A DNA stretch of 64,000 nucleotides from positions 608,366-672,365 of the forward strand of contig CAWJQA010000006.1 of the NCBI GenBank assembly GCA_963844885.1, read 5' to 3'. This document shows positions 7,086 to 63,706 of the stretch, one piece after another. Under the pieces are notes generated by a model. That model had not been told where the DNA came from. It searched no databases and was given only the letters and a program-made list of their open reading frames with translations. Numbering within the stretch: the first letter of the stretch is position 1; each line of letters starts with the position of its first letter. The position numbers were made by a program, and so were the translations under genes. This stretch comes from an uncultured Holophagales bacterium. Lineage in GTDB: Bacteria; Acidobacteriota; Thermoanaerobaculia; Multivoradales; UBA5704.

Positions 7086-7565
7086 TCATTTTCTGGGCTT
7101 GCCAGCAGGTCGGAGCGCGGCCTTAACAAAAGTGCTAAGTACTCCTCCGAACCCTTTCAAATCAGCCCTTTCATTAGCTGGCATTACGACCAAAGCGAGA
7201 AGGTAGGCTCCTAGTAAGGCGGCAGCGATTACGAAAGGAAGAACCCACGCCGTGACGTTAGAAGACGCAACCGCCAGAGCTGTGAGCGTTACGACTAAGC
7301 CGACGAGGATCATCGCGGCTCTAGCGATCCCGTGCCAGAAGACATTAGGCGGCGGGAGTAGCGCCGCCCTTCGGCCGGCTGGGCTACTAGGGCCGTCTGG
7401 GCTAGCTGCCGATACCGAGTAACCCCGATCGTCGATAGCGACATCGGCGCTCGCCTCTTGATGCAAGTCACCCTGACGCACGTGAAGATTCGAGTCACCC
7501 GTCGTTGTTAGTTTGAGTTGAATGTGCGATTTGTCATAGCCGCTACCGAGGTCGACCTTCGTCAC
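7086..7565 (-). CDS. hypothetical membrane protein (lower-GC island)
   Basis: 159-aa ORF with two C-terminal TM helices. Codon usage is visibly AT-richer than in its neighbours. Confidence 0.45.
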   Translation of the reverse strand: MTKVDLGSGYDKSHIQLKLTTTGDSNLHVRQGDLHQEASADVAIDDRGYSVSAASPDGPSSPAGRRAALLPPPNVFWHGIARAAMILVGLVVTLTALAVASSNVTAWVLPFVIAAALLGAYLLALVVMPANERADLKGFGGVLSTFVKAALRPAGKPRK

Positions 7566-7584
7566 TTGCTCTCCTCCTTAGTCC

Positions 7585-8535
7585 TCAAGGAATTGCAAAA
7601 GGGTGAGCTTCGACTGGGTGTTCGATGTGCTCATGTTTGAACTCTTCGTTCGGGTATTCCAGTTTTTCTCGCACGCGAATGTAATCCGGGTCGTATCGAT
7701 GCTCGTAGCGCCTTGTGTCGTTGACATATTTGACGAGGGCCCTTTCGTACGCGGCTATTTGGCTTGCATGGACTCGGACGTCGAGGTCGATGATATTGGT
7801 CGTTGACCGACTTTCGTGAAACCGAGATGGTGCATGGATGGCCTGCACTTGGCCGACTATGTAGATCTCGCGAATCGGAAGGGGAGGGCGGAAGGCAGCC
7901 TCCACCATCTGGGAAGTCGCGGGAGGCAGCGACTGATCACTATTTAGGACTTCGAATCCTGGGGGTGGACGCGGGAGGCCACCCTTCCCGGCCTGCTTCA
8001 AGAGTGCTTGGCGGAGATCGCCGTCCGCGAACAGAAGAACACTGGCCCATTGGTCCTGCTGCTCAAGGGCGGCCACAGTGACTGTGACCGCACCCACTAG
8101 GACGGTGGGCCTGACACCGTCGACTACTGCGCCTCTGGCTGCCGCCTCGCTTTTTTCCTTCGGAATCTTTTCCGCATCAGAAACGGTGATGATTCGGATG
8201 AGCTCATCTTTGATTGTCAGGACTGTGTGGGCGTCCGGAGTTGTACCATCATGGACCTGGAACTCAGCGTAGTACGGCTGAGGTCGGGTCGGGAGGGTCG
8301 GGGGAATCAGGTCTGAAGAGAGATCCGTGGACGTGCTGCTGGTCGTGGTCTCGAAGCCATGGAAAAATCCGTACAAGGCCAACGACCCAAGGAACAGTAG
8401 TGGGGCCCCCAGAGCCACCAGAGGTAGGATGCACCCGAGCACCCAATCAGTAAGGCTCCAATCCTTCTGTGACGGCTTTGTCGTGAACTGGGTCTCGCCG
8501 CGTTGCGGACCACGGGGATGGCGATCCTGGGCCAT
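7585..8535 (-). CDS. hypothetical membrane-anchored protein (lower-GC island)
   Basis: 316 aa with an N-terminal TM helix, an S/T-rich linker and a C-terminal globular region. It is tightly linked to 7086..7565. Confidence 0.5.
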   Translation of the reverse strand: MAQDRHPRGPQRGETQFTTKPSQKDWSLTDWVLGCILPLVALGAPLLFLGSLALYGFFHGFETTTSSTSTDLSSDLIPPTLPTRPQPYYAEFQVHDGTTPDAHTVLTIKDELIRIITVSDAEKIPKEKSEAAARGAVVDGVRPTVLVGAVTVTVAALEQQDQWASVLLFADGDLRQALLKQAGKGGLPRPPPGFEVLNSDQSLPPATSQMVEAAFRPPLPIREIYIVGQVQAIHAPSRFHESRSTTNIIDLDVRVHASQIAAYERALVKYVNDTRRYEHRYDPDYIRVREKLEYPNEEFKHEHIEHPVEAHPFAIP

Positions 8536-8881
8536 AGGAGCCTCCGAATGAGCTGGGGCGGATTATACTACTTAGACGTGCGTGTCTGCGTTTTTCCCCT
8601 GCGGGTGCTAACGTCGGAGGGTGCGCCTCGGGGCCCCGAGGTGTGCGCTTTGTGCCCGAAGGAGGCGCCCTGGTGGAGGTCACGGTCAGGACGAGGCAGT
8701 CTCGCCTCCTCCTGCGACCCGGGCACTGCCTTGAACGAGATCGTGATCGGACCTACGCTGGTAGACGAAATCGAAGCCGACGCCAGAGCGGGATCATTTC
8801 CGCCTGGCCTGCCGTTCGTCCGAGCCTGGCACCTTCTGAGTGGAAGATCACGCAGGTGATCAGCTTCGACTACGTGTCCCA

Positions 8882-9430
8882 CTAGGCCGGCGCCGGGCTG
8901 CGTTGCTCCTGGCGAGGACGCGGCCCCTTCGCATAGAGCGCCTCGTAATACGAGCGCCCCTCGCGGACGAGATGGATGCGCTGATCCCGTTGCAGGCGGC
9001 GGAGAGCGGACGAGACGTTGCGCACGTCGGCGGCCTTGCCCAACCGGGCCCGGAAGCGCCGGTTGATCTCCGCAGTGATGGCCGTGGGACCGAACGGCTC
9101 GCCGTCCGGCCGGCTCGCCAGGATCCGGGCGATCAGATCGCCGACCCTGGAGTTGGGACCGATGTCCGGGTCGTCCACCACGGTGGAAGAGGCAGGAGCC
9201 GCGGGCACCGTCTCGGGCGCGGCAGGCTTGACCAGCTCCGCGGCGGGGACGGCTACCGTCTTGAGCGCTTCGAGATGCTGCGCCGTCGTCTCCAACTCAG
9301 CCGCGAGGATGGTGCGCTGCTCGCGATGATGCTCCTCCTCCCGGACATGGCTGGCGACCTGCTCGCGGAGGAAGGCGACCCGCCGCTCCAGGTTGTCGAG
9401 AATCTCGGCCAGCGAAAGCTTCAAGCTCAC
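8882..9430 (-). CDS. hypothetical coiled-coil protein with C-terminal winged-helix-like segment (ORF track 8882..9562; probable GTG start near 9430)
   Basis: The coiled-coil-like region reads LAEILDNLERRVAFLREQV...LEALK. The C-terminal segment reads ARLGKAADVRNVSSALRRLQRDQRIHLVREGRSYYEALY. The first 45 aa of the long ORF are translation of the tandem repeat array and are probably not coding. Confidence 0.4.
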   Translation of the reverse strand: MSLKLSLAEILDNLERRVAFLREQVASHVREEEHHREQRTILAAELETTAQHLEALKTVAVPAAELVKPAAPETVPAAPASSTVVDDPDIGPNSRVGDLIARILASRPDGEPFGPTAITAEINRRFRARLGKAADVRNVSSALRRLQRDQRIHLVREGRSYYEALYAKGPRPRQEQRSPAPA

Positions 9431-18297: not shown

Positions 18298-19515
18298 TCA
18301 GCCGGCCTCGGAACCAGACGCGCGGAAGCGCTCGCCCACACGGCGATAGGCCTCGCGGAAGGAGATCCCTTCCGCGAGGACCAGCCGGTAGGCCTCCTCG
18401 GCCGCGCGCAGCTCGGGCGCCAGCTCGATGCGCTCGGCGTTGAACCGCACGCCGTCCAGGGCCGGCACCACGATGGCCAGCGTGTCGCGCGCGAGATCGA
18501 CGCCGCGGAAGAGCGGCGCCTTGAGGAGTTGCAGGTCGCGGTGGTAGCCCGACGGGAGCTTGGCGGTGATCCCCAGCACCTCCACGAGGCAGGCCTGCGC
18601 GGTCGCCGTACGGCCGCGGATCAGCTCGAAGACGTCCGGGTTGCGCTTCTGCGGCATGATCGAGGAGCCGGTGGTCATCTCCGCGCTCAGGGTGACGAAA
18701 CCCAGCTCTTTCATGTTGAACAGCACAAGGTCGGCGGCCAGCCGTCCCAGATCCTGCATGAGCAGCGCGGTTTCGAAGAGGACGTGCGCCTCGGCCTTGC
18801 CACGGGAGAGCTGGACGGCGGTGACCGGCTCGTGGATCGCGGCGAACCCGAGGCTCCGGCGCGTGGCTTCGCGGTCGACCGGCAGCAGCGGCACGCCGTA
18901 GCCGGCGGCGGACCCGAGCGGGTTCTTGTCCAGCCGGCGGCGGGCCGCGGCGAGCCCTTCCGCGTCGTCCCGCAGCTCGGCCGCGAAGCCGCCGGCCCAC
19001 AGCGGGACGGAGCTGGGCATGGCGGGCTGCTGGTGGGTGTAGCCGGGGAGCGGCGTGGCCGCCTCACGCCCGGCCAGCGCGTCCAGGGCCGCGGCCACGG
19101 CGAGCGCCCCCTCCCGCAGCGCCGCGGTCTCGTCGAGCAGGTAGAGCCGCAGGGCCGCCAGCACCTGGTCGTTCCGCGAGCGGCCGAGGTGGAGGCGGGC
19201 ACCGGCCTCGCCGATCCTCGCCGTGAGCCGCGACTCCAGCGCGGTGTGGACGTCCTCGTCGGCCAGCTCGATCCGCCAATTGTCCTCATGTTCGGGGCCT
19301 GCGGCATGGGCCGCGGCCAACGCGGCCAGCCCCTCGCGGATCGCCGCCAGGTCGGCCGCCGAGAGAAGGCCGGCGCCGTGGAGCATCTCAGCGTGGGCGA
19401 TCGACGCGCGCACGTCGTAGGGGACCAGGCGGGCGTCGAGGAGGTGATCCTCGCCTGCCGTGTAGCGCAGCACCCGTTCGTCGAGCGGCTCGCCCTTGTC
19501 CCAGAGCCGGGTCAC
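18298..19515 (-). CDS. argH: argininosuccinate lyase (fumarate lyase family), GTG start, about 405 aa with a shortish C-terminus
   Basis: GSSIMPQKRNPD signature, the GRSRNDQV motif and an RLWDKG N-terminus. The upstream 265 aa of the ORF 18298..20319 are G/R-rich artifact. Confidence 0.8.
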   Translation of the reverse strand: MTRLWDKGEPLDERVLRYTAGEDHLLDARLVPYDVRASIAHAEMLHGAGLLSAADLAAIREGLAALAAAHAAGPEHEDNWRIELADEDVHTALESRLTARIGEAGARLHLGRSRNDQVLAALRLYLLDETAALREGALAVAAALDALAGREAATPLPGYTHQQPAMPSSVPLWAGGFAAELRDDAEGLAAARRRLDKNPLGSAAGYGVPLLPVDREATRRSLGFAAIHEPVTAVQLSRGKAEAHVLFETALLMQDLGRLAADLVLFNMKELGFVTLSAEMTTGSSIMPQKRNPDVFELIRGRTATAQACLVEVLGITAKLPSGYHRDLQLLKAPLFRGVDLARDTLAIVVPALDGVRFNAERIELAPELRAAEEAYRLVLAEGISFREAYRRVGERFRASGSEAG

Positions 19516-20327
19516 CGGGCCTCCACGGTCTCGGCTTCTGTGATCTTCCCGGCGCGTAGCTCGGCGTAGGCGCCGATCAGGCGGGTGTAAAAGCGCGCCC
19601 CGGCGAGGATCTCCTCCTCCAAGACGAATTCGTCCGGCGTGTGCGAGCGCTCGCTGCGGCCCGGCCCGCACTTGATGGCGGGCGCGCCGAGGAAGACCAT
19701 GTCCGACAGGGTCGGCGAGCCGAACACGCGGGCCTCCGGGCGGACGCGGCAGGCGGCCTGGACGATGGCGGCGTCGCGCGGCGTCTCCTTCGGCGTGAGC
19801 CGGTCCGACAGCACTCGCACCTCTCCCCGCACCCGCTCCCTCACCCGCCTCAGGATCTCGGCCGCCGGCAGCGCCGGCGTGGTGCGCACGTCGAGCACGG
19901 CGGTGGCCTCGCCCGGCACCACGTTCCTCGCCGTGCCGGCGCGCACCTGGGTCGGCTCCAGCGTGACCGGTCCCAGGTGCGGATGCGCCGGCCCGAAGTC
20001 GATCCCCTCCAGCGCCACCAGGTCGCGGGCCAGGAGGCGGGCGGCGTTCGCGGCGCCGAGCGCCTGTGCGTTCGCGGCGTGGCAGGCGTCGCCATGGGCG
20101 ATCAGCTCCAGGACCATCAACCCCTTCTGGGCCACGGCCACGTCGAGCCCGGTGGGCTCGCCCACCACGGCCGCCTCGATCTCCAGGCCGCGGCGCGCCA
20201 GCTCGGCGAGCACCGCCTGGGTGCCGGTGCCGCGCGTCTCCTCGCCTTCGACCAGGGCGAGCGCCAGCGTGAACGGCAGGTCGAGGCCGGTGAACGCGAG
20301 GAACGCGGCTCGGGCGCACGGGCCGTC
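19512..20327 (-). pseudogene. M20 acetylornithine deacetylase/ArgE-DapE-like, N-terminally truncated remnant
   Basis: C-terminal M20 catalytic and dimerisation region (LALVEGEETRGTG ... PTLSDMVFL ... SHTPDEFV). An in-frame stop lies at about 20328. No N-terminal His/Asp metal site was found upstream. Confidence 0.5.
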
Positions 20328-20329
20328 GG

Positions 20330-21140
20330 CGCTCAGGTCGACAGTGAGGTCAGGCCCTCAGAAAAGGCCCTTTTCCAGCGCGGCGATCTCTCCGGCCGTC
20401 CGCCTGCGGGCCCAGACGACCTCGCCGATCTTCCGCGCGCCAGCCGGGAGGGCATCGCCAGCATCTCTTGTTGAAGACGCTCACGTGGGAGATCGCCTTC
20501 CAGCCCGCCTGCCTCACCCGGGCCGACGGCCACTCGTGCAGCGCACCGGCATGCCCCGCCCGCGGAACGGCTCCAGAACGCGCAGAAAACCGAGAGTGCC
20601 ATCGTCCTGCAGAATCTCCCAGCCGGCGAGCTGGCCGTCGATCTCCATCCAGCCGTGAGGCCGGTCCAGATGCGATACAGGAGATAGTCGAGCCCGCCGT
20701 ACTCCTCCACGTAGGGCTGATGCTCCATCAGGAACGCGGCCTCCTTCTCTTCCAGCGGCCGCACCGGGATTCCGGCGTCCCCTGCCTGGAGTCCGGGGCT
20801 CGGACTCCAGGGTGATCTCGACGTTGAAGTACAGCCCGGGCCAGCCTCGCGGATCGCGGCCACTGGTGCGGCGGAAAGGCGGCGAAGCGCGGCTCCGGCT
20901 CGGCCGGCAGGGTCGCGAGAAGGCCGGCGAAAGCTTCCGGGCGGTTGTACAGGGCGTGCCACCAGTCGCCCCGGCGGTAGAGGATGGCGCCTTCCGGGTC
21001 CGCGGGGTCGGCGAGGAACCGGTCTACCTCCCGCCGCCAGAGGTCGGCCAGGCACACCGGGTTGGTGCCGGGCGCACCCCGGAAGACTAGGCCGGAAAAC
21101 CCTTCGAAAGGGAGCAGGTCCACGGTCATCGGGAGCCTCA
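20330..21140 (-). pseudogene. hypothetical gene split over three reading frames by at least 3 apparent frameshifts
   Basis: Coding-like segments follow one another in different frames: MTVDLLPFEGFSGLVFRGAPGTNPVCLADLWRREV..., PLEEKEAAFLMEHQPYVEEYGGLDYLLYRIWTGL, WMEIDGQLAGWEILQDDGTLGFLRVLEPF and ...GEIAALEKGLF*. Confidence 0.35.
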
Positions 21141-21305
21141 CTCCTTGCGGTAGACCGCCATCGAGTTGTCGAGCGCGCAGGGGACGCGCGACGCGTGCTC
21201 GCCAAGGGAGAACTGCAGCAGCTCCTCCTGACGAGGCCGAAGGGATCCCAGACATCCTGCGTTTTCTCGTCGACCTTGCGCAGGCCGAGTTCCGGATGGA
21301 TCTCC

Positions 21306-22106
21306 TCATAGCCCTGGTAGGAGGCTGAGGCCTTGTTGACGCTCCGTGGCGCACAGCAGGTAGCCGCCGGCCGCGAGGATGCGGGAGTAGACGGAGCGGA
21401 CCCTCGTGATCTGTCCGAGCTCCTGGTCGAGGACGGCCGTGAGGAAGTGCTCGGTGATCACGTCGAAGCGCCCCAGGGGCACGATGTCCTCCCGCCGCTC
21501 CAGGTTCCGGACCCAGAGCTCGGTGCTGATCCGTCCGAAATCGCCGAGCTGGGGGCTCATGATCCCGAAAAAGCGGCGGTCGATGTGGATCGCCTGGCCC
21601 GCGACCCGGATCGTCCCGGGCTTGCGGTGCCGGCGGCGAGCTCCCGTTCGACGGTTGCGATCTGAAGGATCGGATAGAGGCACTTGTCCACCACGACGAG
21701 CGCGATCCGGGGCGGATCGTTCAGGCGGCCCAGGACCGAGCGGAGGATCGCGATGTAGGTGTAGTGGTGAACGTAGCTCGCGGCTCCGGCTTCCAGGATG
21801 CGCACGGTCTCGTGCCCGCGCCGGCTCGAAAGGATTTCGAACAGCCTGCTTTTCGATCCACTCCCGCTGCTCCCTCGCCAGGTACCAGCTGCCGGCAGGC
21901 GCCGGGCCGGCGCGAAAGATGTCCGCCAGGGCTCTCATGTCGCCGCCCGGAACCAGGAATCCGGTTTGGGCTCCCGGCTGGACGACAAGGAGCGGCCCCG
22001 TGAGCCCGAACGGCACGTTGTGCACCCGGTCCCGGCGATAGCCGCAGGGCTGGATCCGGTCCCCTTCAGGACGCAGTACGCGCTCGCCGCTCAGGGGGCG
22101 CTGCAT
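21306..22106 (-). pseudogene. class I SAM-dependent methyltransferase with apparent internal frameshifts
   Basis: Motif-I-like ILEAGAASYVHHY...IALVVVDKC (frame of 21557..21805) sits between segments in the 21306..22106 frame. Those segments carry RFDVITEHFLTAV ... RILAAGGYLL (post-I/II/III motifs). Confidence 0.45.
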
Positions 22107-22778
22107 GTCCGCGCGGATTGTGAATCATGGCGTTCCTTTCAACCCGGCTCGGGCCGCCAGACCGAGCCCAGGACGAAGCCGAGGACGATTGCGGGACCGC
22201 GATCGCCGTGGCGCCCTTGGGCCAGCTCAGTGCGAACGTCTTCAGAACGGTGCCGAAAGCCGTGGGAAACGAGGGCGCGGTGCCGGCTTCCAGGTGCAGC
22301 CCGGCGAAGAGGAGGAGCATGGCGGCGAAGATCGCGAACTAGCGTCCAGGGGCCAACCCGAAGTCCGCCGTGGCGCCGAAGAGCGCCAGCCGGCCCAGGC
22401 GGATCAAGCGGATCGGACCGGCAGACGGGCCGCGGACTCGAACATCCGGTCCTTGCGGCTCTCAAGCTCACAAGAACTCCGTGAAGGCGCAGGGAGCCAC
22501 GCCGGTCACATCCACCGTGCGCAGCATCGCTGCCGCAGCCCGGGTGAGGCCTACGCCACGGAAGAACGGGATCCGGACGAACGGCTGGAACTCCACTGGA
22601 CCAGGGTCACATACCGGAAATAGGCGCCGTGGAGCTGGGCCATGGCGATGTCGACCGATTCGAGTGCGCCTTGTCGAACCGGCAGCCGGCGAGCCGGGCG
22701 CTCCGCAGCTGCGTGTGCAGCAGGCGGCCGCCTCGAAGCCTGGGCGTCCTTCAGGATCGCGCCCCTAGAGCGCAGCTC

Positions 22779-23765
22779 TCAAGAGGCTCCGCGCAGGTTC
22801 GCGGCTTCGAGCAGGGGCCGCCCGGGGAGTAGCAGCGGAGAAGCGCGCCCGGCCACGGAGCACCTGGCCAAGTGCCGCTGAGATCGCCGGCCATGGCTCG
22901 CATCCCGAAAGTCTTGACCCCGCAGTTCTTCTCCCGGATCGCGTCGCCCGGAGCTTCCGGCGCGGCGCCTGACCGGCTCGGCCGCGGAGCTTCCTGATTG
23001 GGAGCACCCCCTGGAACGATGCCGACAGGAACAGTTCCGATCTGTCCCTGGATGGATATCTCCGGCACTGCGGCCGCCGCGGCTGACGCGCTCGGAGACG
23101 TAGGTGAAGAGGTCGCCTACCGAGATCCGGCCGTCGTGGTTGAGATCGGCCTCGCCCGTAGACAGGCCATGCACCAGGAAGCTCGTGAAGATGGACGGAC
23201 CGGTGCCCCTCCTCCCCTCCCAGGCTTTCTGATCCAGGCTCGCCGCGGACAGGACGAAATGCCCGAAACCTTCTTCAAGCACACCTTCGCGCTTCAGGCC
23301 TTCGGCGAAATCGAGCACCGGCAGCGCGTCTCCCTTGGCTCCTCGCTTGAACAGGCCGCTGTTACAGCGTCGAGGACAGGATCTGCCGCTCGACCAGCTA
23401 TTCTCCACCTCGTTGTGCAGCCAGCGGGACCAGAGCGCAGTGGAGCTCGGAAGGTCCCCCTTCGTATCAGCCATGGCCAGGTAAAGTTGATCTCCCTTCC
23501 GGAGGCCGTGGCCGGAGTAATAGAGCAGCAACAGGTCTTTATCGATTCGGCCTCGGAAGAACAGCTCAATGGCCTCGTGGACCTCGTTGAGATCCTTGTC
23601 GATCAATATCCGGACGTCGTCGAAGCCGCCGATCTCGGGCTGCTTGAGCACTCGGGCCAGCTCTCGCACGTCGACGGCCGGCTTCTGGAGCCGGGTGACG
23701 CTGCCGTCCTTGTAGGTCCCGTTGCCGACGAGCAGCGCCAGTCGACGGCCCTCCCCCTTGCTCAT
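22779..23765 (-). CDS. caspase-like peptidase C14 domain protein (C-terminal about 80 aa probably out of frame)
   Basis: N-terminus LALLVGNGTYKDG ... DLLLLYYSGHGL (caspase His motif). Later segment FVLSAASLDQKAWEGRRGTGPSIFTSFLVHGLSTGEADLNHDGRISVGDLFTYV. The Cys region is atypical or possibly frameshifted. Confidence 0.6.
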   Translation of the reverse strand: MSKGEGRRLALLVGNGTYKDGSVTRLQKPAVDVRELARVLKQPEIGGFDDVRILIDKDLNEVHEAIELFFRGRIDKDLLLLYYSGHGLRKGDQLYLAMADTKGDLPSSTALWSRWLHNEVENSWSSGRSCPRRCNSGLFKRGAKGDALPVLDFAEGLKREGVLEEGFGHFVLSAASLDQKAWEGRRGTGPSIFTSFLVHGLSTGEADLNHDGRISVGDLFTYVSERVSRGGRSAGDIHPGTDRNCSCRHRSRGCSQSGSSAAEPVRRRAGSSGRRDPGEELRGQDFRDASHGRRSQRHLARCSVAGRASPLLLPGRPLLEAANLRGAS

Positions 23766-23772
23766 AGTAGCC

Positions 23773-24179
23773 TCAGCGCCGGCCGGTAGCCATGTCCGTC
23801 AGGCTCGTGATCAACTGATCCAACTGCTGCGTCGAGAGGGCGTCGGCGGCGTATTCGAGCGTGATCGATCGCTTCCCGTCGCTCACCTGCACCTTGAGCT
23901 TCTTCGCTTCGGCCTGTGAGTTGAGCCACGCCTGCAGGGTCTGGAGGAGCGTCGGCAGCACCGTGGGCAGGACGGCGACCGCCACCGCTCCGAGGGCCAG
24001 GGCGGCTTCGATCGACTTTCCCCCGGCGAACCGGCTCCCGGTGCGAGCGTCGCCACGGGCTCCGGAGACCCCCGCAGGTCATCGAGCAGAGAGGCCGAAA
24101 GGTCTGCGATCACCTCTCCCGGAGCACCTTCAGCCTCAACCTCAAGCGTCAAGACCATCTCGTCCTGTGGCGGCCCCAT
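23773..24179 (-). CDS. small hypothetical protein co-operonic with the caspase (two frames, 1 apparent frameshift)
   Basis: RBS AGGGAG then MGPPQDEMVLTLEVEAEGAPGEVIADLSASLLDDLRG... (frame a). It continues in another frame as ...IEAALALGAVAVAVLPTVLPTLLQTLQAWLNSQAEAKKLKVQVSDGKRSITLEYAADALSTQQLDQLITSL. It ends 8 nt before the caspase start. Confidence 0.4.
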
Positions 24180-24370
24180 GTCTTCTCCCTGTAGTTGGTA
24201 CTGTGGAAAGATAGTACCGTGAAATTGCCCCAGGCGCGAAGCCCCATTGTACTTTCCATCTTGCGAAGACCTGTCGGCTCGTCGCCAAAACGCGTCCCCG
24301 ACCAGCCTTGCAGACGCCAATCGGCTGGCGAGAGCATCCCGGGGAGGTCCGACAGGGAAACGTAAGCGCT

Positions 24371-25522
24371 TCAAGGGCGGATCTCCGCGAGCGCCGACGC
24401 CAGCGCGTCCACGTGCGACGCTTCGAGGACGAGAGGCGGCAGCAGCCGCACGATGTGGGGGTCTCCGCTGGTGCCGGTCAGGATGCCGTGCTCGATCAGC
24501 TCCTTCTGAATCTCCTCGGCCGGCCGCGTGGTGCGCAGGCCGATCAGGAAGCCCTTGCCCTGGATGGAGGTGACCGGACCGGTCACGCAGGTGGCGCGGA
24601 TGCGCTCCGACAGGTCGCGGACCCGCTGCAGCAACCCCTCGTCCTCGATGACCTGGATCACCGTGTGGATCAGGGCGCAGGCGAGAGGCCCGCCGCCGAA
24701 CGTGGTGCCGAGGTCGCCTTCCTTGAGGCCCGCGGCCAGCTCGTCGCTCACCAGCACGGCGCCCGCGGGGAAGCCCCCGGCGAGGCCCTTGGCCATCGTG
24801 AGCAGGTCAGGGGTGACGCCATACGCCTGCGCCGCGAACGGCTGGCCGCTGCGGCCGAGCCCGCACTGCACCTCGTCGAAGATCAGCACGGCTCCGGCCG
24901 CGCGGGCCAGCTCGCGCGCCGAGGCGAGCCACGGGCCGCCCATCTCGTAGGCCCCCGCCTGTCCCTGGACGGGCTCGACGATCAGCGCCGCGGCGCCGGA
25001 GAACGCCGCCTCCAAGGCGGCCAGGTCGCCCCGCGGCACGAACGTCACCTCGAACGGCGTCTGCGGAAAGCCATACCAGCGCGACGAGCCCCAGGTCACC
25101 GCCGCCGCCGCCGCTGTGCGGCCGTGGAATGCGCCTTCGACGGCCACCACCCGTCGCCGCTCCGTGCGCCGGAACGCCAGGCGCAGGGCGTTCTCATTGG
25201 CCTCGGCGCCGCTGTTGACGAAGAAGGCACGGGTGAGCCCCTCCGGTCCCCAGTCCACCAGGCTGCGCGCGGCGCGCGCGCGCACCTCCAGCGGCACCAC
25301 GTTGCTCTGAAAAAACAGCGTCGAGGCCTGCTCCGCCAGCGCCGCCACAAGCCGCGGATGACCGTAGCCGAGCAGCGCCACGGCGTGGCCGCCGTAAAAA
25401 TCGATCAACGTCCGGCCGTCGCGTGTCCGCAGCAGCGCCCCCTCCCCGCTCACCGGCTCAATGTCCGAGTGCGGGTAGACAGGCAGCATCCAACGCCGCT
25501 CCTCTAGGGTCATCGCCTCCAT
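24371..25522 (-). CDS. argD: acetylornithine aminotransferase (class III PLP aminotransferase)
   Basis: 383 aa. Motifs FVNSGAEANE, IFDEVQCGLGRSG and LLTMAKGLAGGFP. Confidence 0.9.
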   Translation of the reverse strand: MEAMTLEERRWMLPVYPHSDIEPVSGEGALLRTRDGRTLIDFYGGHAVALLGYGHPRLVAALAEQASTLFFQSNVVPLEVRARAARSLVDWGPEGLTRAFFVNSGAEANENALRLAFRRTERRRVVAVEGAFHGRTAAAAAVTWGSSRWYGFPQTPFEVTFVPRGDLAALEAAFSGAAALIVEPVQGQAGAYEMGGPWLASARELARAAGAVLIFDEVQCGLGRSGQPFAAQAYGVTPDLLTMAKGLAGGFPAGAVLVSDELAAGLKEGDLGTTFGGGPLACALIHTVIQVIEDEGLLQRVRDLSERIRATCVTGPVTSIQGKGFLIGLRTTRPAEEIQKELIEHGILTGTSGDPHIVRLLPPLVLEASHVDALASALAEIRP

Positions 25523-25594: not shown

Positions 25595-27319
<1,725 letters not shown>

Positions 27320-27503: not shown

Positions 27504-27848
27504 ATGGCAATCACCTCTTCCGTCTCAGACGACCTGCTGGCGCAGATGGCACAGGTGATTGTGCGAGAAGTCGAGCCGGTGCGTATCATCCTGTTCGGCT
27601 CTCATGCCCGCGGCGAGGCCCGGCCAGACTCGGATGTCGACCTGTTGGTCATCGAGCGGGAGGATTTCGGCAAACAGCGCAGTCGGCGCCGTGAGGCGTC
27701 CTTGCTGTGGCGCGCCCTTGCCCGTTTCCCCGTACCCAAGGACATTGTGGTCTACAGTCAGGCGGAAGCCGCCGCGTGGAAAGACTCTCCCGGCCATCTC
27801 GTGGCTCAAGCGCTGCGGGAGGGGAGGGTGCTCTATGAGCGAAGATGA
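27504..27848 (+). CDS. mntA: nucleotidyltransferase-domain antitoxin (MntA, minimal nucleotidyltransferase)
   Basis: ILFGSHARGEARPDSDVDLLV NTase motif. It overlaps the downstream HEPN gene (ATGA overlap). Confidence 0.8.
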   Translation: MAITSSVSDDLLAQMAQVIVREVEPVRIILFGSHARGEARPDSDVDLLVIEREDFGKQRSRRREASLLWRALARFPVPKDIVVYSQAEAAAWKDSPGHLVAQALREGRVLYERR

Positions 27849-28221
27849 GCTGCCATCGAGACTGCTCGCCCTGGCCCGCAGAGATCTCCGCGCCGCGGAG
27901 CTTCTTCGGGATCAGCCGGAGGTGGGCGACGCCATCATCGGATTCCATGCTCAGCAGGCGGCGGAGAAAGCCCTCAAGGCTTGGCTGACGATTCTAGGAA
28001 TCGATTTCCCTCACACCCATGACCTCAGCCTGCTGATCCACAAGCTGGAGGAGGAAGGCGCCGAGGTGACGAGTTTGTGGGCGCTCCTCGACCTCAACCC
28101 GTTTGCCGTGCAGTTTCGTTATGAGATCTTGGATGACGAACCCCTGGATCATGGAGCAACTCTGGAGCAAGTGGAAGCGTTGTTGAATCAAGTAGAACGT
28201 CTCTGGGACTCCGCTTCCTGA
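27835..28221 (+). CDS. hepT: HEPN-domain toxin (HepT)
   Basis: 128 aa. MSEDELPSRLLALARRDLRAAELL and a conserved Arg/His within GFHAQQAAEKALKA. Classic MNT/HEPN pairing. Confidence 0.8.
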   Translation: MSEDELPSRLLALARRDLRAAELLRDQPEVGDAIIGFHAQQAAEKALKAWLTILGIDFPHTHDLSLLIHKLEEEGAEVTSLWALLDLNPFAVQFRYEILDDEPLDHGATLEQVEALLNQVERLWDSAS

Positions 28222-28240
28222 CGGGTGTGGCGCTGGCGGG

Positions 28241-28427
28241 ATGGCGAAGCCTTGCGCTCCTCCTGAGATGACCCATCAGCCCGGAGGACTTCGACCGGCT
28301 GCGCGAGCGTGACCGTTTCATGGCGGCCGTTCAGGAGGGACTCGCCGACGTGAAGGCAGGTCGCCTGCTCGACACTCAGGAAGTCGACCGTGAGCTGGAC
28401 CTGGAATTCGGCCCCCTGAATCCATGA
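28241..28427 (+). pseudogene. type II antitoxin-like small gene, apparently frameshifted
   Basis: MAKPCAPPEMTHQP... then a stop. The +1 frame continues as PISPEDFDRLRERDRFMAAVQEGLADVKAGRLLDTQEVDRELDLEFGPLNP* and ends at the toxin start. Confidence 0.3.
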
Positions 28428-28766
28428 GGGTGCGCTGGACGCGCCGTGCCCTTGCAGACCTCACGCTCCGGCCGCGTCGTTCCCGAATTCGGTAGAGCCG
28501 ACATCCGGGAGGTCTTCCTCAGAAGCTACCGGATCGTCTATGCCGTCCATGACGACGGGATCGAGATCGTGACGGTCTTTGAAGGCCACCAGCTCTTTCC
28601 TTTGGATGTTGGGAAGCCCTCCTTCAACATAAGAAGACGGACCGTCGGGCGGCGCAAGACGCCTTTTCCAGAACCTCGGTCCTTGTCCTTCACCACCATT
28701 GCCTGCATCAAGAAGCTCGAATCTCATTTTTTGGCCTCGCTCCGTTCCGAGGAGGCTTCACTGTAG
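28424..28766 (+). pseudogene. RelE/ParE family toxin with apparent N-terminal frameshift
   Basis: ATG at 28424 gives MRVRWTRRALADLTL then a stop. The body continues in the frame of ORF 28446..28766 (PEFGRADIREVFLRSYRIVYAVHDDGIEIVTVFEGHQ). Confidence 0.5.
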
Positions 28767-29443
28767 GCTACAAATATCTCCACGTTGTAGAGGCGGAAAA
28801 ACTTGAGGTAGCGGTGGAGCATCCCGAAGCCAACCAGCAACGCCAGCAACGCCCACCGGAGCTGCTGGACGACATGGTTGGACCATCCTAGCCGCATCCA
28901 GTCGAGCACCGCGTTGACTGCAAAGAAGCCAGCGCCGGCAAGGCCGACGAAAGTCATGTTCCGGCAGAAGCCGTAGAGCTTCAGAAAGCCGTCCATACGC
29001 GCGTAAACATTGGGGTCCTGCTTGGCGATTGGGAACGCACACCAGAACAGGGACTCTCCCGTAACCTCTTCGTTGCGATCCGCAGTTGCACGCTCTCGAA
29101 CCTTCCTCTGCAGCCCAGCATCAAGCGGAGTGTAGTAGTCTTGGAGTAGGGTTTTTTTGAGAAACCTTCGCCAACCGAGGTTTCGCCCATTCATCAGGAT
29201 AACGGAAGGGCGGAAAAGCACGTAATGCACGAATCTTCGTTCGATAAGCCAGCCCGACGGTGCTGCCAGGATTTGGCCGACAATGTAAGCAGTGGCAATA
29301 GTAAGCGTCCCGCTAGCAACCGTCCACTGTACCCCGAGGACATAGTGCGTTGAAAAAATACTATCCCAGACTACGAGGGCCGACAGGCCGCTCGCAACGT
29401 AAGCAAACACGTCGTAGTCAGAAAACCGCGCGAGCTTGTCCAT
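28724..29443 (-). CDS. hypothetical 4-TM membrane protein, last gene of the E1/E2/JAB operon
   Basis: 239 aa. Two N-terminal and two C-terminal TM helices. Lower GC. Lies 11 nt downstream of the JAB gene. Confidence 0.55.
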   Translation of the reverse strand: MDKLARFSDYDVFAYVASGLSALVVWDSIFSTHYVLGVQWTVASGTLTIATAYIVGQILAAPSGWLIERRFVHYVLFRPSVILMNGRNLGWRRFLKKTLLQDYYTPLDAGLQRKVRERATADRNEEVTGESLFWCAFPIAKQDPNVYARMDGFLKLYGFCRNMTFVGLAGAGFFAVNAVLDWMRLGWSNHVVQQLRWALLALLVGFGMLHRYLKFFRLYNVEIFVAYSEASSERSEAKK

Positions 29444-29454
29444 GATGAACCTCC

Positions 29455-29910
29455 CTAGGCCTCCCTGTCGGCAACAGGTACTAAGGCCCGATCTTCTTGC
29501 TCAATCGAGGATGAGGGCGGCTCGGCAAGCAGTGCCCGATAGCCAACTGGCGTATGAATAAGTAGAACGGATGGCATGAGCTGAGCCAACGCGACAGCCG
29601 CAGCCGTCGCCCGGTCCAGAGACGATGGGCCCGATGGGCCCAGATGACTGTGCCAGGTTCCGAGGCAGTATAGGCTGTAACCACCACTCTCCGCGTAGGC
29701 CTTCAGTGTGGCGCACACACCTGCAGTGCCAAGAACGAACTCAGATGGGGAACGGCTACTATCTTCAGACGCTGGCAAGACATCCACGATGTAGAACGTT
29801 TGAGCCGCCTCCGAGAAACGACCGACCAAGATCCCTCCAGTCTCTACCGGTCGGCCAAGAGGCAACCTCGTCGGCCATCTTCCGATGTGCCCGACTGGCG
29901 ATCCGGACAC
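29455..29910 (-). CDS. JAB/MPN (JAMM) metallopeptidase domain protein
   Basis: JAMM motif E..(ETGGILVG)...GTWHSHLGPSGPSSLD (HxHx7Sx2D). It overlaps the E1 3' end. Confidence 0.75.
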   Translation of the reverse strand: MSGSPVGHIGRWPTRLPLGRPVETGGILVGRFSEAAQTFYIVDVLPASEDSSRSPSEFVLGTAGVCATLKAYAESGGYSLYCLGTWHSHLGPSGPSSLDRATAAAVALAQLMPSVLLIHTPVGYRALLAEPPSSSIEQEDRALVPVADREA

Positions 29911-31408
29911 TCCAAGATAGAGCTCCGTCTATAGCAACTGGCATCCACGGTTCCACTTCGTGCTGGCACCAGGATTGGCTTATGCCGTTCTCGTCCACGA
30001 GTCCGAGCAGTATACGACCCCCACCGGTTGGAAGTCCGCTAAGCTGGAGGGCTGCAAGCGCCTCGGCCATCGGCGCTGCTAGCATAGAGATCTGCGCGTC
30101 CGACATCACCATCGTTGCCGACCCGCAACCTTCCCCAATTGTCTGCCGCCGAAGGGCGACGCCCTCGTCTGCGAACACTAACTCGCGCAGCAACGCGTCC
30201 TCCCGCATCAGCGCGTAAGTCTCAGTTATCAGGTCGCCCGTGTTCGGATTGCGCACAGGTCCTTCGATCGAGAGCAGCCCGACCCGACCGTGGGCATACA
30301 ACGAGGTTTCAATCACGCGCGGGATTGTAACCCCCGCCGGAGTGGAAGCCAACGCCTCACGCGCGACGAGTGAGGCGGTCGAATTCACAACTGCCCAATT
30401 CTTCTTCGGCAGCATCCGCTTCGCACAATCCGCATCACGCGCAACCTTAACGATATCCTCGACATGTGGCTTGGCAATCTGGCCCAATCCTCTGATCGCC
30501 TCCGCAACCGCGAGTGCCTTCGAAGACATCCATGACATCTGCATGTATTCCTGGATTGGGACCAACCCATGCCTTGCCGCGTTGTGTGGGCTTAGGTTGC
30601 CTCGGTCGATAACGATGTGAGGCGCCCGGCCGGCACGTGCTAAGTGAAGAGCAATCTTCGACCCGAGACTTCCGGCTCCGACTTGAACCCACAGCGGTAC
30701 CTCTTCGACCGTGTCGCTCCCTGACATACTTCGCAGGAGTAATGCAGAGATTGTGTGACGATGTCCGGCGGGACGGACCCGCGTCTGGTCGCCCTGAGGA
30801 AACAAATGTGGAACACCAACCTCGACTATATATGGGCAGAGTTCCAGAGTGCTATTACTGCCAATCAGATGACATGGCCGCCGAGCGCAGAGAATGATAG
30901 CGAGCGGGAATAAATTTCCTCCCTCTTTGTCTGCCAAGCATCGTTCGAGCCAGTTTAATGCAGAGCGTAGCGGTTTAGCACAGCCATAACCGGTAGCTCG
31001 CTCCATTAGACTGCGGACATCGGTCACGGTTTCCGGCTCATATCGATCCGCGACTATCAACCGACCTGCGGGTGTTTTGCCCGGCCAGGCGAAGATTGCC
31101 AGAGCCCGGCCGAGCGCCGTATCAGGAGCGCGCTCCAATGGGCGCTGCCGAAACGACTCGCCAACGGTGTTCTTGTTCAGTTTTATATGTTCACGACCAA
31201 CCTCTCCATAGAAGGCGATTCCTTCGGCCGCGTCAACCTGATATCGGCGGTAGTCGAATCTGAAGAAAGAATAACCTTCCTCACGCGATACCAATGAGTA
31301 AAGATGTGACGCATCGGCGACCACTAAATCAACCAAACTATCCGCCGCACTGGTTCCCAGCCCTGCTGCCGGTCGATAAGCCGCCCCAGTGCGGCATTCT
31401 CCAGCCAA
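29765..31408 (-). CDS. E1-like ThiF/MoeB family adenylyltransferase with about 200-aa N-terminal extension
   Basis: Rossmann motif VQVGAGSLGSKIALHLARAGRAPHIVIDRGNLSPHNAARH. 547 aa. The 5' end overlaps the E2-like gene in another frame. The real start may be internal or fused. Confidence 0.8.
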   Translation of the reverse strand: MAGECRTGAAYRPAAGLGTSAADSLVDLVVADASHLYSLVSREEGYSFFRFDYRRYQVDAAEGIAFYGEVGREHIKLNKNTVGESFRQRPLERAPDTALGRALAIFAWPGKTPAGRLIVADRYEPETVTDVRSLMERATGYGCAKPLRSALNWLERCLADKEGGNLFPLAIILCARRPCHLIGSNSTLELCPYIVEVGVPHLFPQGDQTRVRPAGHRHTISALLLRSMSGSDTVEEVPLWVQVGAGSLGSKIALHLARAGRAPHIVIDRGNLSPHNAARHGLVPIQEYMQMSWMSSKALAVAEAIRGLGQIAKPHVEDIVKVARDADCAKRMLPKKNWAVVNSTASLVAREALASTPAGVTIPRVIETSLYAHGRVGLLSIEGPVRNPNTGDLITETYALMREDALLRELVFADEGVALRRQTIGEGCGSATMVMSDAQISMLAAPMAEALAALQLSGLPTGGGRILLGLVDENGISQSWCQHEVEPWMPVAIDGALSWSVRIASRAHRKMADEVASWPTGRDWRDLGRSFLGGGSNVLHRGCLASV

Positions 31409-31797
31409 GCTACTAGTTGGTTCAGAACCCCAACGAGACCCTGTTCCTGCAGCAGTTCTGCGAGGCTTCCTTCATAGATGCATGGCACTGGACGCTCATT
31501 GGGAGCGCCAGGCATGACATGCGCCAACGCGCGATCGAAATCCGCGCGCAAACGAATCATTGGCGGCTTCAGTGGGAACGCGTCAGGAAAAATGAGCTCG
31601 ACTGGCTCGACTGCACGCACGCCACTGGGACTGACCCCATCAGCCATCCACGAGTTTGGTAGCCCGAGTCGTAGCGCCACGTCAACAATCGTTATCCCCG
31701 TCTCCGAATTGGCTTCCGTAAGAAAGACACCCTCGACAGCCGGGTGAGCGGCTATGAGACGCAACGCCCTTCGGATCGGCCCGGTTGTTCGGTGCAT
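31324..31797 (-). CDS. UBC-fold E2-like protein
   Basis: Aligns by eye to the UBC core: RRALRLIAAHP ... FPLKPPMIRLRADF ... HVMPGAPNERPVPCIYEG (FP..PP.v.f...HPN...G.iC pattern, catalytic Cys) ... LVGVLNQLVAWL. Confidence 0.65.
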   Translation of the reverse strand: MHRTTGPIRRALRLIAAHPAVEGVFLTEANSETGITIVDVALRLGLPNSWMADGVSPSGVRAVEPVELIFPDAFPLKPPMIRLRADFDRALAHVMPGAPNERPVPCIYEGSLAELLQEQGLVGVLNQLVAWLENAALGRLIDRQQGWEPVRRIVWLI

Positions 31798-31815
31798 TTC
31801 TACTCTGGATTCTGC

Positions 31816-32970
31816 TCAGCCGTGGGCGAGCGGATGGCGACCGACAGCACTGCCTACTACGATAGAGGCTCTGGTCAAGACCTTTGTCAGAAGGCGAGGC
31901 CCATATTGTCCAATCTCAAACTCCACTATGTCCGGATTGCGTTCGGGTTCGCCGACGCATTTCAAGGAGCCCCCAGCATCCTTGGCAATCTGTTCGTACT
32001 CGCGCTTCGCCCGGATGCAGGGTGGATCGTTGTCGTCGTCTTTGATCGATTTACTGCTCGCCACGAGCACCGCACCCTTGCGGGTCTGCGACAGAGCACT
32101 ACGGGCTTCCTCTGAGACCTCGGCGTCCTCGCCCTTTTCACTCCAACTGTCATAGGAGAGGGAATGCCAAGAGCAGTGGTGTGGCGTCTGCAGGATGTCG
32201 TAGCTAAGCCAGTCCGGGCGAGCAGAATGCCGCTGCCAGAGCCGCTCCCAGATCGCAACTTCGGCATCGCCGCCAGTAAGGAACCGCGCGACGTCCGCCT
32301 GGCTGTCGCCCGCGAGCGAGAAGTTGAGGATCGTGCTGCAGTGGTTTTTCGACCGCACCTCTTCCTCATCCTCGTTGCCCTTCGGCTGGGGCGCCAACAG
32401 TCGTGCCGATATTGATGAGTCGTACTGGCCATTAACGCTGGAGAACACTTGGTCGACTTTGATGAGAATTGCCGTCAGATCATCGGTCTTTCCATCTTCA
32501 TCCTCACCGAGGATCAGAATGCGGTCTCCCTCCGACACGATACCGAAGCTATCGCGGAACCGCTTCACTCGGCGACGCGCCTCTGAACTGAACGCGGCCG
32601 CATCATCACAGAGGACATGGTTGCGCGCCGCGCGGCGAAAAACCATAGGTGAAGACCAGATCTCACGGACGAAGATCTTATCGGTGATCTTTGACCAATC
32701 TTCCGGCGGGCCGAAGTGGAAGTGCTTCTTCAAGCCTCTGCTGTGGTCCTCGTCAGGATGACTCAAGAGGAAGGCGTCCACATAGAGCCGGCCCTCTCCG
32801 TCGCGCTTCAACCGGTCTCGCAACATCTTGGCCACATCGGGCGTATCATCGTCAGGGTCATCCGCGGCGGCACGAATGTTGACGTCAATCAGGATTCTGC
32901 GCCCGCTCTCCAACTCGAGGAGCGTCATATCGCCATTGCAGACGGGGTAAAACGTGATCTTGGCTGGCAT
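31816..32970 (-). CDS. metallo-beta-lactamase-fold hydrolase, first gene of the E1/E2/JAB operon
   Basis: MBL motif FLLSHPDEDHSRGL, the N-terminal beta-strand pattern ITFYPVCNGDMTLLEL..RILIDVN, and later conserved His/Asp. 384 aa. Confidence 0.7.
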   Translation of the reverse strand: MPAKITFYPVCNGDMTLLELESGRRILIDVNIRAAADDPDDDTPDVAKMLRDRLKRDGEGRLYVDAFLLSHPDEDHSRGLKKHFHFGPPEDWSKITDKIFVREIWSSPMVFRRAARNHVLCDDAAAFSSEARRRVKRFRDSFGIVSEGDRILILGEDEDGKTDDLTAILIKVDQVFSSVNGQYDSSISARLLAPQPKGNEDEEEVRSKNHCSTILNFSLAGDSQADVARFLTGGDAEVAIWERLWQRHSARPDWLSYDILQTPHHCSWHSLSYDSWSEKGEDAEVSEEARSALSQTRKGAVLVASSKSIKDDDNDPPCIRAKREYEQIAKDAGGSLKCVGEPERNPDIVEFEIGQYGPRLLTKVLTRASIVVGSAVGRHPLAHG

Positions 32971-33149
32971 GTCCTTAACCTCCTTGGAGGGGATGCCCAG
33001 GGCGGGCTTCTACGCCTCATTTTTACCCTACCCTAGCAGCCCGTGTCAAGATGCTGTGGTGGCGAGCCGGTGAACCCCTAGAAGTTGGGGTCCTCACCCA
33101 ATGCTGCCTACCTGAGCCTCGGCCTCTGCGCATCGGGTAGACACTCTCG

Positions 33150-35814: not shown

Positions 35815-36438
35815 CTAACTCGTCCCGCTCCAGAAGCTCGCGAGGCTCCGCGTGCCGATGAACTTGTCGCGGTCGCAGCGGCCGATGCCGGCGACCTGGT
35901 GCGGCTCGGGCCCGACGGCGCCGTCCGTGTATTGCCACAGCGTCCACGTCGGCCAGTTCGGCGGCACGACCGGCGTCGGCCCGTACTGAGCCAGCCAGAG
36001 CCAGCATTTGGCGAGCACGGGATCGGTCTTCGTTCCCAGGAGATCCTTGATGTAATGCCCGGAGTAGAGCCCGGGAAACCTGCCGGTGATCGCTTGAATG
36101 TGGGTCACGAAAGCCCGCGCCTCTTCCAGCGTCATGGAAGGGCCGGTCAGGTTGGGCTCGAAATCCAGCACCATCAAGGTACCGGGATCTTTGCCGACCA
36201 CGCGCAGAAAGTTCTCCGCCTGCCGCACTCCATCGCTTCCCGTGCCGAAGTGATAGGCGCCCCAGAGCAGCCCCGCCTCCTTGGCCTTGGCCCGATTGAT
36301 CCCATAGGTTGGATCGACGTTGGATTGACCCTGGCTGGCCTTCTGGATCACGCCGAGGATGCCGTCGCCCTTGGCCTTCTTCAGATCCACGTCGCCGTTG
36401 TGATGCGAGAGATCCACCACCGCGTTGATGATCGCCAC
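35815..36438 (-). CDS. GH25 family lysozyme/muramidase
   Basis: RBS GAAAGGAG then MAIINAVVDLSHHNGDVDLKKAKGDGILGVIQKASQG...GLLWGAYHF (GH25 catalytic region). 207 aa. Confidence 0.8.
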   Translation of the reverse strand: MAIINAVVDLSHHNGDVDLKKAKGDGILGVIQKASQGQSNVDPTYGINRAKAKEAGLLWGAYHFGTGSDGVRQAENFLRVVGKDPGTLMVLDFEPNLTGPSMTLEEARAFVTHIQAITGRFPGLYSGHYIKDLLGTKTDPVLAKCWLWLAQYGPTPVVPPNWPTWTLWQYTDGAVGPEPHQVAGIGRCDRDKFIGTRSLASFWSGTS

Positions 36439-63630: not shown

Positions 63631-63706
63631 TGGTGGGCCGTTAGGGACTCGAACCCTAGACCCGCGGATTAAAAGTCCGCTGCTCTACCAACTGAGCTAA
63701 CGGCCC
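63631..63706 (-). tRNA. tRNA-Lys (anticodon TTT)
   Basis: The reverse complement GGGCCGTTAGCTCAGTTGGTAGAGCAGCGGACTTTTAATCCGCGGGTCTAGGGTTCGAGTCCCTAACGGCCCACCA folds as a cloverleaf with anticodon loop CTTTTAA and a 3' CCA. Confidence 0.85.

Follow-up and report, generated by a model that had tools for sequence, protein, structure and literature searches.

An EACC1–caspase pair in a frameshifted four-gene block of an uncultured Holophagales bacterium

Introduction

The two-gene EACC1–caspase system, described as ‘System 4’ in eLife, consists of a constant 5′ gene for the small protein EACC1 and a 3′ gene for a caspase, to which some 50 alternative C-terminal domains are joined (Kaur, Burroughs, Iyer & Aravind 2020, PMC7159879). 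In the pair from Ktedonobacter the caspase cuts EACC1 near Asp49, toxicity is limited to the C-terminal fragment, and only the cleaved form permeabilises liposomes (Evans et al. 2025, doi 10.1101/2025.11.14.688446). Here we analyse a locus of this kind in an uncultured Holophagales bacterium (Acidobacteriota), within a stretch of 64,000 nucleotides (positions 608,366 to 672,365 of contig CAWJQA010000006.1, GenBank assembly GCA_963844885.1) that is hereafter called the window and in whose numbering all positions are given. The locus is very probably an EACC1–caspase module, a protease-gated, pore-forming cell-death system, whose two genes open a compact four-gene block on the minus strand. The core pair is already known, and the four-gene configuration is a modestly new variant of it.

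The window shares with the system of Kaur et al. (2020) the order of a small 5′ EACC1 gene followed by a 3′ gene for a protein with an N-terminal caspase, matches to both PF19953 and NF047832 that pass the cutoffs after frame repair, a hydrophobic helix in EACC1 that is rich in small residues, and a caspase C-terminus of the variable kind, membrane helices having been reported there in about one third of the caspases. It differs in that this C-terminus is a pentapeptide/two-helix module accompanied by methyltransferase-fold and GNAT partners, so that there are four genes and not two. With EACC1–KrAvs12 of Ktedonobacter racemifer it has in common an EACC1 encoded upstream of a caspase-domain protein and, presumably, the same logic of removed autoinhibition and pore formation; in contrast, no STAND/Avs NTPase sensor is found by Pfam in the repaired caspase protein, the EACC1 linker has no Asp at the equivalent position, and the trigger of KrAvs12 is a phage tail connector. 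Bacterial gasdermin–protease systems, with which a comparison is drawn by Evans et al. (2025), also appear similar, in that a caspase-like protease frees a neighbouring pore-former and brings about death of the abortive-infection type. EACC1 is nevertheless unrelated to gasdermin, being only about 135 residues long with a single hydrophobic helix, and its inhibitory part is N-terminal, not C-terminal. A further parallel is with the ThsB-like TIR effectors of Thoeris: at one distant locus the same C-terminal module, again with methyltransferase-fold and GNAT partners, carries a ThsB-like TIR domain instead of a caspase. The window itself differs from Thoeris in having no TIR domain, and neither ThsA nor another signal-receiving partner was seen.

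Results and discussion

EACC1 and the layout of the block

Both genes flagged in the initial annotation, EACC1 and the caspase, lie on the minus strand. The EACC1 gene occupies 23773..24179 (ATG at 24177-24179, TGA at 23773-23775) and encodes 135 residues, slightly fewer than the 140 or so first proposed, once a single base has been repaired. It is followed, all on the same strand, by the caspase gene (22139..23765), by a gene for a protein of about 329 residues with a predicted methyltransferase fold (21138..22128) and by a gene for an FR47-like GNAT acetyltransferase of about 258 residues (20358..21129). The intergenic gaps are 7, 10 and 8 nucleotides, and a direct check found the starts and stops of all four genes in place. 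The gap between EACC1 and the caspase had been given as 8 nucleotides and is in fact 7 (GGCTACT), which bears out the description of the small upstream partner as tightly coupled. Scans of 20200-24450 found no promoter or terminator.

The partner had been read in two frames with one apparent frameshift, and this shift can be placed at a single-base deletion in a G5 run on the coding strand (C5 on the plus strand, 24020..24024), in the linker between the N-terminal domain and the hydrophobic helix. The N-terminal part, from the ATG at 24179, reads MGPPQDEMVLTLEVEAEGAPGEV… and the C-terminal part, in the other frame, …AVAVLPTVLPTLLQTLQAWLNSQAEAKKLKVQVSDGKRSITLEY…; with G6 instead of G5 the sequence becomes ...GAGSPGGKSIEAALALG..., in agreement with the family motif, and the added G yields …LAPGAGSPGGKSIEAALALGAVAVAVLP… within the 135-residue protein. 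The repaired protein scores 25.6 bits against the Pfam EACC1 family (PF19953), above the gathering cutoff of 23.6, whereas the C-terminal frame by itself, without repair, reaches 21.6 bits and falls under it. A profile hidden Markov model (HMM) of the family, built here from the 35 upstream open reading frames (ORFs) of homologous loci described below, matches with positions 4-48 in the N-terminal frame and positions 45-121 in the next frame (47 + 8 bits across both frames), and since successive model positions follow one another across the two frames the match is not due to chance. The acidic N-terminus, hydrophobic helix (AALALGAVAVAVLPTVLPTLL) and C-terminal domain that had been proposed for the partner are all seen in the repaired protein, which has one hydrophobic helix, rich in small residues, and short alpha+beta parts on both sides of it (IEAALALGAVAVAVLPTVLPTLL). 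A single-sequence AlphaFold model, with a mean predicted local distance difference test score (pLDDT) of 61.9, suggests a beta-alpha-beta unit, a low-confidence linker at residues 49-53, a strand/helix, a beta-hairpin and a helix.

The caspase domain and its catalytic site

As deposited, the caspase ORF comprises 328 residues (22779..23765, minus strand). It starts MSKGEGRRLALLVGNGTYKD and contains the motifs LLLLYYSGHG, FTSFLVHGL and DGRISVGDLFTYV, with FTSFLVHGLSTGEADLNHDGRISVGDLFTYV also present downstream. The assignment to the caspase-fold C14 peptidases is upheld by a Pfam Peptidase_C14 match to this ORF (E=2e-15), which falls into two stretches, and the fold match persists after frame repair, when it spans profile positions 1-224 of 233 in a single stretch. 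Against NF047832 (“caspase, EACC1-associated type”), for which the cutoff is 140 bits, the deposited ORF scores 114.9 bits; after repair of three 1-nucleotide deletions and one C-terminal shift the score is 145.3 bits. The PADLOC caspase model also matches (E=6e-11), and the caspase frame scores 222.9 bits against a family HMM from the homologous loci, a score that excludes a chance frame. Since the repaired partner passes PF19953 and the repaired protease passes NF047832, the proposal that the pair belongs to the conflict or abortive-infection type is supported. The caspase domain covers 23060..23765 of the minus strand; its His86 lies in YYSGHG and its catalytic Cys in (LDA)CNSG. The end of the caspase at 22779, on the other hand, is an out-of-frame artefact; the stop of the full gene is at 22139-22141, for a total of about 545-551 codons.

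The region of the catalytic Cys had been called atypical, with the reservation that it might itself hide frameshifts. It is the reservation that holds: three 1-nucleotide deletions within 25 nucleotides, at approximately 23391, 23377 and 23366 (within 23355..23395, minus strand), scramble the beta-strand that precedes the catalytic Cys, and the unusual appearance belongs to the run of about 36 single-base indels across all four genes and is no biological peculiarity. The deposited sequence at this point is SSGRSCPRRCNSG, the ancestral form being S-RQIL-VLD-A-CNSG, so that GRSCPRRC replaces RQILVLDAC; the net loss before the Cys is 3 nucleotides, and the frame is thereby regained. At this point homologues have RQVLILDCCHSGAF and the window has GRSCPRRCNSGLF. 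The segments RQIL, VLD and CNSG lie in three successive frames, and one base inserted at each of the three sites restores SRQILVLDACNSGLF in gapless alignment to the homologues, the repaired catalytic region reading RQILVLDACNSG. After this repair the catalytic dyad is complete, with His in YYSGHG and Cys in LDACNSG, and both columns are invariant in 65-71 homologues. The two sites at which frameshifts had been suspected, the run in EACC1 and the Cys region of the caspase, are thus both real.

The C-terminal module and the two downstream genes

The caspase had been described as a stand-alone protease. Full reconstruction of its gene gives instead a protein of about 550 residues in which the caspase domain is followed by a linker, pentapeptide repeats and two C-terminal membrane helices, and the EACC1–caspase pair lies within the four-gene block. 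An intact block with the same gene order was found at locus L081, where the four genes encode 134, 551, 327 and 256 residues (the last FR47-like), and another on a JGI contig (3300071325), whose genes code for 134, 551 (C14 + Pentapeptide) and 331 residues. Both contigs carry relatives of the third gene product, and among the proteins of the JGI contig the methyltransferase-fold one, which alone could be compared, is 87-89% identical to its counterpart in the window. The window is 65-81% identical to L081 across the four genes once single-base shifts are allowed. EACC1 aligns with its intact 134-residue orthologue at 77% identity with one frameshift, and a frameshift-aware alignment of the caspase protein with the intact 551-residue orthologue runs from 23765 to 22142 at 65% identity. 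The full caspase gene carries 21 single-base indels and one TAG. When it is repaired with the orthologue as guide, the resulting 545-residue protein scores 71.9 bits against Pfam C14 and 24.7 bits against Pentapeptide (PF00805; cutoff 20.2), the corresponding Pentapeptide score of the L081 orthologue being 59.8 bits.

The pentapeptide-repeat region (22590..22950, minus strand) is scattered across all three frames (for example ANLRG ASLES CALGG AILKD AQLRG GRLLH TQLRS ARLAG CRFDK). When A(D/N)LXX periodicity was scored along the entire window in an unbiased, frameshift-tolerant way, the maximum, 37.9 bits, fell at 22602-22763 of the minus strand, whereas 12 shuffles gave at most 18.6 bits and the plus strand at most 21.2 bits. 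None of the unrepaired single frames passes Pfam Pentapeptide (best 13.9 bits), the raw frames of 20300-23130 have no Pfam match, a codon-usage Viterbi segmentation found no consistent frame beyond the caspase down to 22119, and the stitched pentapeptide tail, used as a database query, returned zero matches. The two predicted membrane helices (22142..22336, minus strand), read directly from the sequence as FAIFAAMLLLFAGLHL and AIAVPQIVLGFVLGSVW, align with those of loci L081, L084, L085, L087, L088, L093 and L094. Just ahead of them the alignment places an in-frame TAG (22339..22341, minus strand) at an invariant Trp codon (TGG) of the repeat-membrane module. By Pfam, neither the repaired 545-residue protein nor the 551-residue orthologue contains any NTPase family, and the protein does not therefore belong with STAND/Avs. 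The C-terminal domains of other homologues (FGE-sulfatase, DnaJ_C, WD40/PD40, HEAT and FtsK, taken from 71 of the 80 homologous loci) were also considered and found no match downstream of the caspase in the window.

The third gene encodes a predicted class I S-adenosylmethionine (SAM)-methyltransferase fold. It aligns with its L081 counterpart at 66% identity from 22128 to 21141 with four shifts, or with seven single-base indels when the intact 331-residue protein P0007 is used as guide; the Viterbi-stitched translation is 87-89% identical to P0007. The protein matches no Pfam family. The AlphaFold model of P0007 has a pLDDT of 86.3, and a Foldseek search of the PDB with this model retrieved class I methyltransferases at E=1e-7, with 563 matches at E<=1e-3; among the 50 matches listed, all are methyltransferases, with template modelling (TM) scores of 0.45-0.56. 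The likeness of the top fold matches to nicotinamide N-methyltransferase, though suggestive beside a TIR NADase, was set aside, because TM scores in this range and identity of about 11% indicate a generic fold. Conserved motifs include a glycine-rich motif I, ILEAG(A/V)AS, and D(V/I)ITEHFLT. The fourth gene, also with seven single-base indels, aligns from 21129 to 20361 with the intact 256-residue GNAT of L081 at 81% identity with seven shifts, and matches Pfam FR47 at 24.9 bits (cutoff 22.1). PADLOC v2.0 gave no match for P0007, the L084 methyltransferase-fold protein, the L085 and L087 pentapeptide/membrane proteins or the L081 GNAT, and in the two fusion proteins matched only the caspase and TIR domains; the L087 methyltransferase-fold protein has a marginal 18-bit match to mad2.

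Homologous loci and a recurring cassette

When one genome per species was scanned, caspase domains 36-45% identical to that of the window were obtained from 80 loci, in Chloroflexota, Acidobacteriota, Streptomyces, Nocardia and others. The pairing with a small gene is conserved: of the 76 loci that have enough upstream DNA, 60 contain a small ORF on the same strand that ends between -17 and +41 nucleotides from the start of the caspase, and 35 of these 60 ORFs match the repaired EACC1 of the window at E<1e-3. Most of the homologous caspase proteins are 500-1450 residues long, and their C-terminal domains are diverse (FGE-sulfatase, DnaJ_C, PD40/WD40, HEAT and FtsK). None of these 80 nearest caspase loci contains the repeat-membrane, methyltransferase-fold or GNAT partner genes.

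The methyltransferase-fold protein also has more remote homologues, at 27-54% identity, whose contigs were followed up; a gene for a pentapeptide/two-helix protein lies directly upstream in 7 of the 11 loci examined, L081 included. These proteins match the C-terminal region of the L081 caspase protein in phmmer searches at E=1e-30 to 1e-59, and the repeat-membrane module shares the motifs FC..E.RKD.LF and FG..TDFG.S..RW. What precedes the module varies. The repeat protein begins with a caspase, and has EACC1 upstream, in the window, in L081 and on the JGI contig; in L084 it begins with a ThsB-like TIR domain (PADLOC ThsB, E=7.5e-22); and in L085/L086, L087, L088, L093 and L094 it has no N-terminal domain. 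The L084 locus (4687-9192) encodes a TIR::pentapeptide/two-helix protein of 433 residues, a methyltransferase-fold protein of 336, an FR47 GNAT of 258, a second TIR protein of 219 and a further protein of 224 residues with no assignment, and is the TIR counterpart of the block in the window. Downstream of it are a PIN/DUF433 pair and an AAA_14 gene. In L087 (197-6975), which belongs to a Bacteroidia metagenome-assembled genome, the bare pair of pentapeptide/two-helix and methyltransferase-fold genes has a phage integrase and Phage_rep_O some 4 kb away.

Such swapping of effectors is typical of defence systems, and a sensor cassette in a conflict system would be expected to show just this exchange of TIR for caspase beside a constant partner. 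It is conceivable, and we suggest this tentatively, that the pentapeptide/two-helix protein and the methyltransferase-fold protein, in some loci with an FR47-like GNAT as well, make up a mobile cassette, so far undescribed, that serves abortive-infection systems as sensor or regulator and takes swappable death effectors at the N-terminus of the repeat protein. A search for literature linking pentapeptide repeats, TIR and anti-phage defence found nothing relevant.

Assembly error or decay

All four genes of the block are broken by indels. Approximately 36 single-base indels are found at 20453-24024, about one per 100 nucleotides over some 3.6 kb, compared with three in the other 60 kb or so of the window, and there is one in-frame TAG. 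The alignments with L081 account for 25 deletions and 8 insertions. Among the genes outside the block, the neighbouring 383-residue aminotransferase ORF (24371-25522) and argH-like ORF (18319-19517) are intact, as are several genes of 2 kb. A simple homopolymer or methylation-motif cause could be discarded, since most indel sites are in runs of just 2-3 bases, only 6 of the 36 indels lie within 8 nucleotides of a GATC (7.0 expected), and no 4-mer is enriched around them.

We consider it highly probable that the indels are consensus errors of the assembly, perhaps because a block that varies between strains had low or mixed coverage. The most serious alternative is a truly decayed, pseudogenised island: both the indels and the TAG would then be genuine mutations, and this organism would have no working system. 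Several observations point in that direction and weigh against assembly error: the density of indels is more than 100-fold above that of the flanks, while the neighbouring ORFs, one read as argD and the other argH-like, are intact; the TAG falls in frame at an invariant Trp; the adjoining argE-like gene is truncated; and the indels are mostly outside long homopolymers. An amidase elsewhere in the window is broken as well. This gene, for a Tat-signal amidase (25601-27313, minus strand), contains two compensating single-base indels at approximately 26437 and 26997, as Pfam Amidase profile positions 2-155 and 163-377 lie in different frames, and its uninterrupted ORF of 574 residues is misleading.

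Decay is nevertheless an unlikely explanation. Every event in the block involves a single base, and 36 indels are accompanied by only one nonsense codon. Three deletions within 25 nucleotides that together restore the frame, as found ahead of the catalytic Cys, are improbable as independent mutations. A like defect occurs in a class II aminoacyl-tRNA synthetase gene resembling AsnRS (59395-60661, minus strand), where a single-base deletion at about 59565 puts the last 55 or so residues out of frame, so that CGGAGCAC stands where CGGGAGCAC should be; indel errors therefore occur outside the block also, and the frameshifts of the amidase can be counted with them. Bacterial pseudogenes have several-fold more substitutions than indels, so that under decay the seven indels in 1 kb of the methyltransferase-fold gene would be expected to come with dozens of extra replacements, and with several stops. 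A relative-rate test on this protein, in which P0008 was the outgroup, counted 21 residues unique to the window, six of which are beside shift junctions, and the 15 clean changes compare with 11 in the sister P0007, which is no clear excess. It is because a matching excess of substitutions is missing that assembly error is the likelier of the two.

Proposed mechanism

If the block is functional in the organism, the caspase protein would be anchored in the membrane by its C-terminal helices, as their sequence suggests. A trigger might be sensed by the pentapeptide-repeat/membrane part, perhaps with the help of the methyltransferase-fold and GNAT proteins, and would then activate the His86/Cys caspase domain. 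By analogy with the Ktedonobacter pair, the caspase would cleave EACC1 in the flexible linker that separates the autoinhibitory domain at the N-terminus from the hydrophobic helix; the C-terminal fragment so released may oligomerise to form membrane pores, so that the cell dies before the phage completes its cycle. Some features fit this scheme less well. The motif preceding the catalytic Cys is LDAC, with Ala in place of the first Cys of the usual LDCC; the EACC1 linker (LAPGAGSPGGKSIE) has no Asp at the position that is cut in the Ktedonobacter protein; and the single-sequence model of EACC1 is weak. The sensing role of the pentapeptide/membrane part and of the methyltransferase-fold and GNAT genes is one that we infer, and these could be cargo or unrelated.

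Kaur et al. (2020) proposed a different mechanism on the basis of the conserved EACC1 helix with its small residues, in which EACC1 is a membrane-embedded sensor and the caspase cleaves itself, which would here release the C-terminal pentapeptide repeats as effector. Pentapeptide repeats can inhibit DNA-binding proteins by mimicking DNA, according to the literature, and the C-terminal part of the window protein is itself a conserved module. This mechanism is improbable, however, given that EACC1 was found to be the substrate, with a C-terminal fragment that is toxic by itself and permeabilises liposomes (Evans et al. 2025). The pentapeptide/membrane module is moreover found protease-free at L085, L087, L088, L093 and L094, which is better accounted for by a role as sensor or scaffold than by one as released effector.

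It is scarcely credible that the deposited sequence is correct as it stands and encodes a stand-alone 328-residue caspase-like protein with a degenerate active-site region and two small separate peptides: the ORF is that recorded by gene callers (P0001 from NCBI/ENA is identical) and has both the CNSG Cys and the SGHG His in frame, but its core beta-strand ahead of the Cys is replaced by GRSCPRR, its final 90 or so residues are out-of-frame text rich in Arg, Ser and Gly, the signal from GC content at third codon positions (GC3) departs from the caspase frame at about 23070, it remains under the NF047832 cutoff, and its orthologues are 551 residues long and align across the frames of the window, so that this reading is already contradicted by NF047832 after repair, by the L081 alignment and by Pfam on the repaired protein.

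Flanking genes and origin of the block

The four-gene block (20358-24179) has a GC content of 0.673, compared with 0.72-0.75 in the flanking arg genes and 0.666 in the L081 block. The flanks of L081 are different, with a convergent radical SAM/SPASM gene. On the downstream side, the GNAT stop (20358-20360) abuts an argE-like M20 deacetylase gene (19518..20350, minus strand; Pfam M20 + M20_dimer) that lacks approximately its first 100 codons, the alignment with PDB 3ct9 beginning at chain residue 136; this truncation could be an insertion scar of the block or an assembly join. The lower GC content, the different flanks in L081 and the truncated argE-like neighbour are such that the block appears to have been acquired horizontally. 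On the other side is the aminotransferase ORF (24371..25522, minus strand), intact in a single frame and outside the system, which from its sequence is probably an acetylornithine aminotransferase (argD). An exact-sequence look-up of its product (24374-25522), like one of the 328-residue caspase ORF, retrieved no record. Genes of toxin-antitoxin type are located 3-4 kb from the block on the plus strand, comprising an MNT nucleotidyltransferase and HEPN pair (27507-28218) and a ParE-toxin-like fragment (28446-28763).

Elsewhere in the window, the GC content of 28000-33000 is lower, at about 0.58, and this region may be foreign DNA; a membrane-like ORF of 239 residues (28727-29443, minus strand) and an ORF of 384 residues (31819-32970, minus strand) have no Pfam match. 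A glycoside hydrolase of family 25, lysozyme-like, is encoded at 35818-36438 of the minus strand (Pfam E=6e-32), and the sole Rfam match in the window is a tRNA-Lys (anticodon ttt) at 63631-63706 of the minus strand.

Implications

The core pair is not in itself a discovery: it was defined in 2020 and is covered by curated models in Pfam and NCBIfam, and its mechanism was demonstrated in 2025. The locus is a cautionary case, since in a contig of 942 kb a 3.6-kb accessory block gave rise to a false 328-residue “atypical” caspase and to the loss of three other genes, and it is possible that the accessory and defence islands of such assemblies are systematically mis-annotated. The cassette, which is not in PADLOC and has a methyltransferase-fold member without a Pfam family, offers a candidate, open to testing, for a new kind of sensing module whose effectors can be exchanged.

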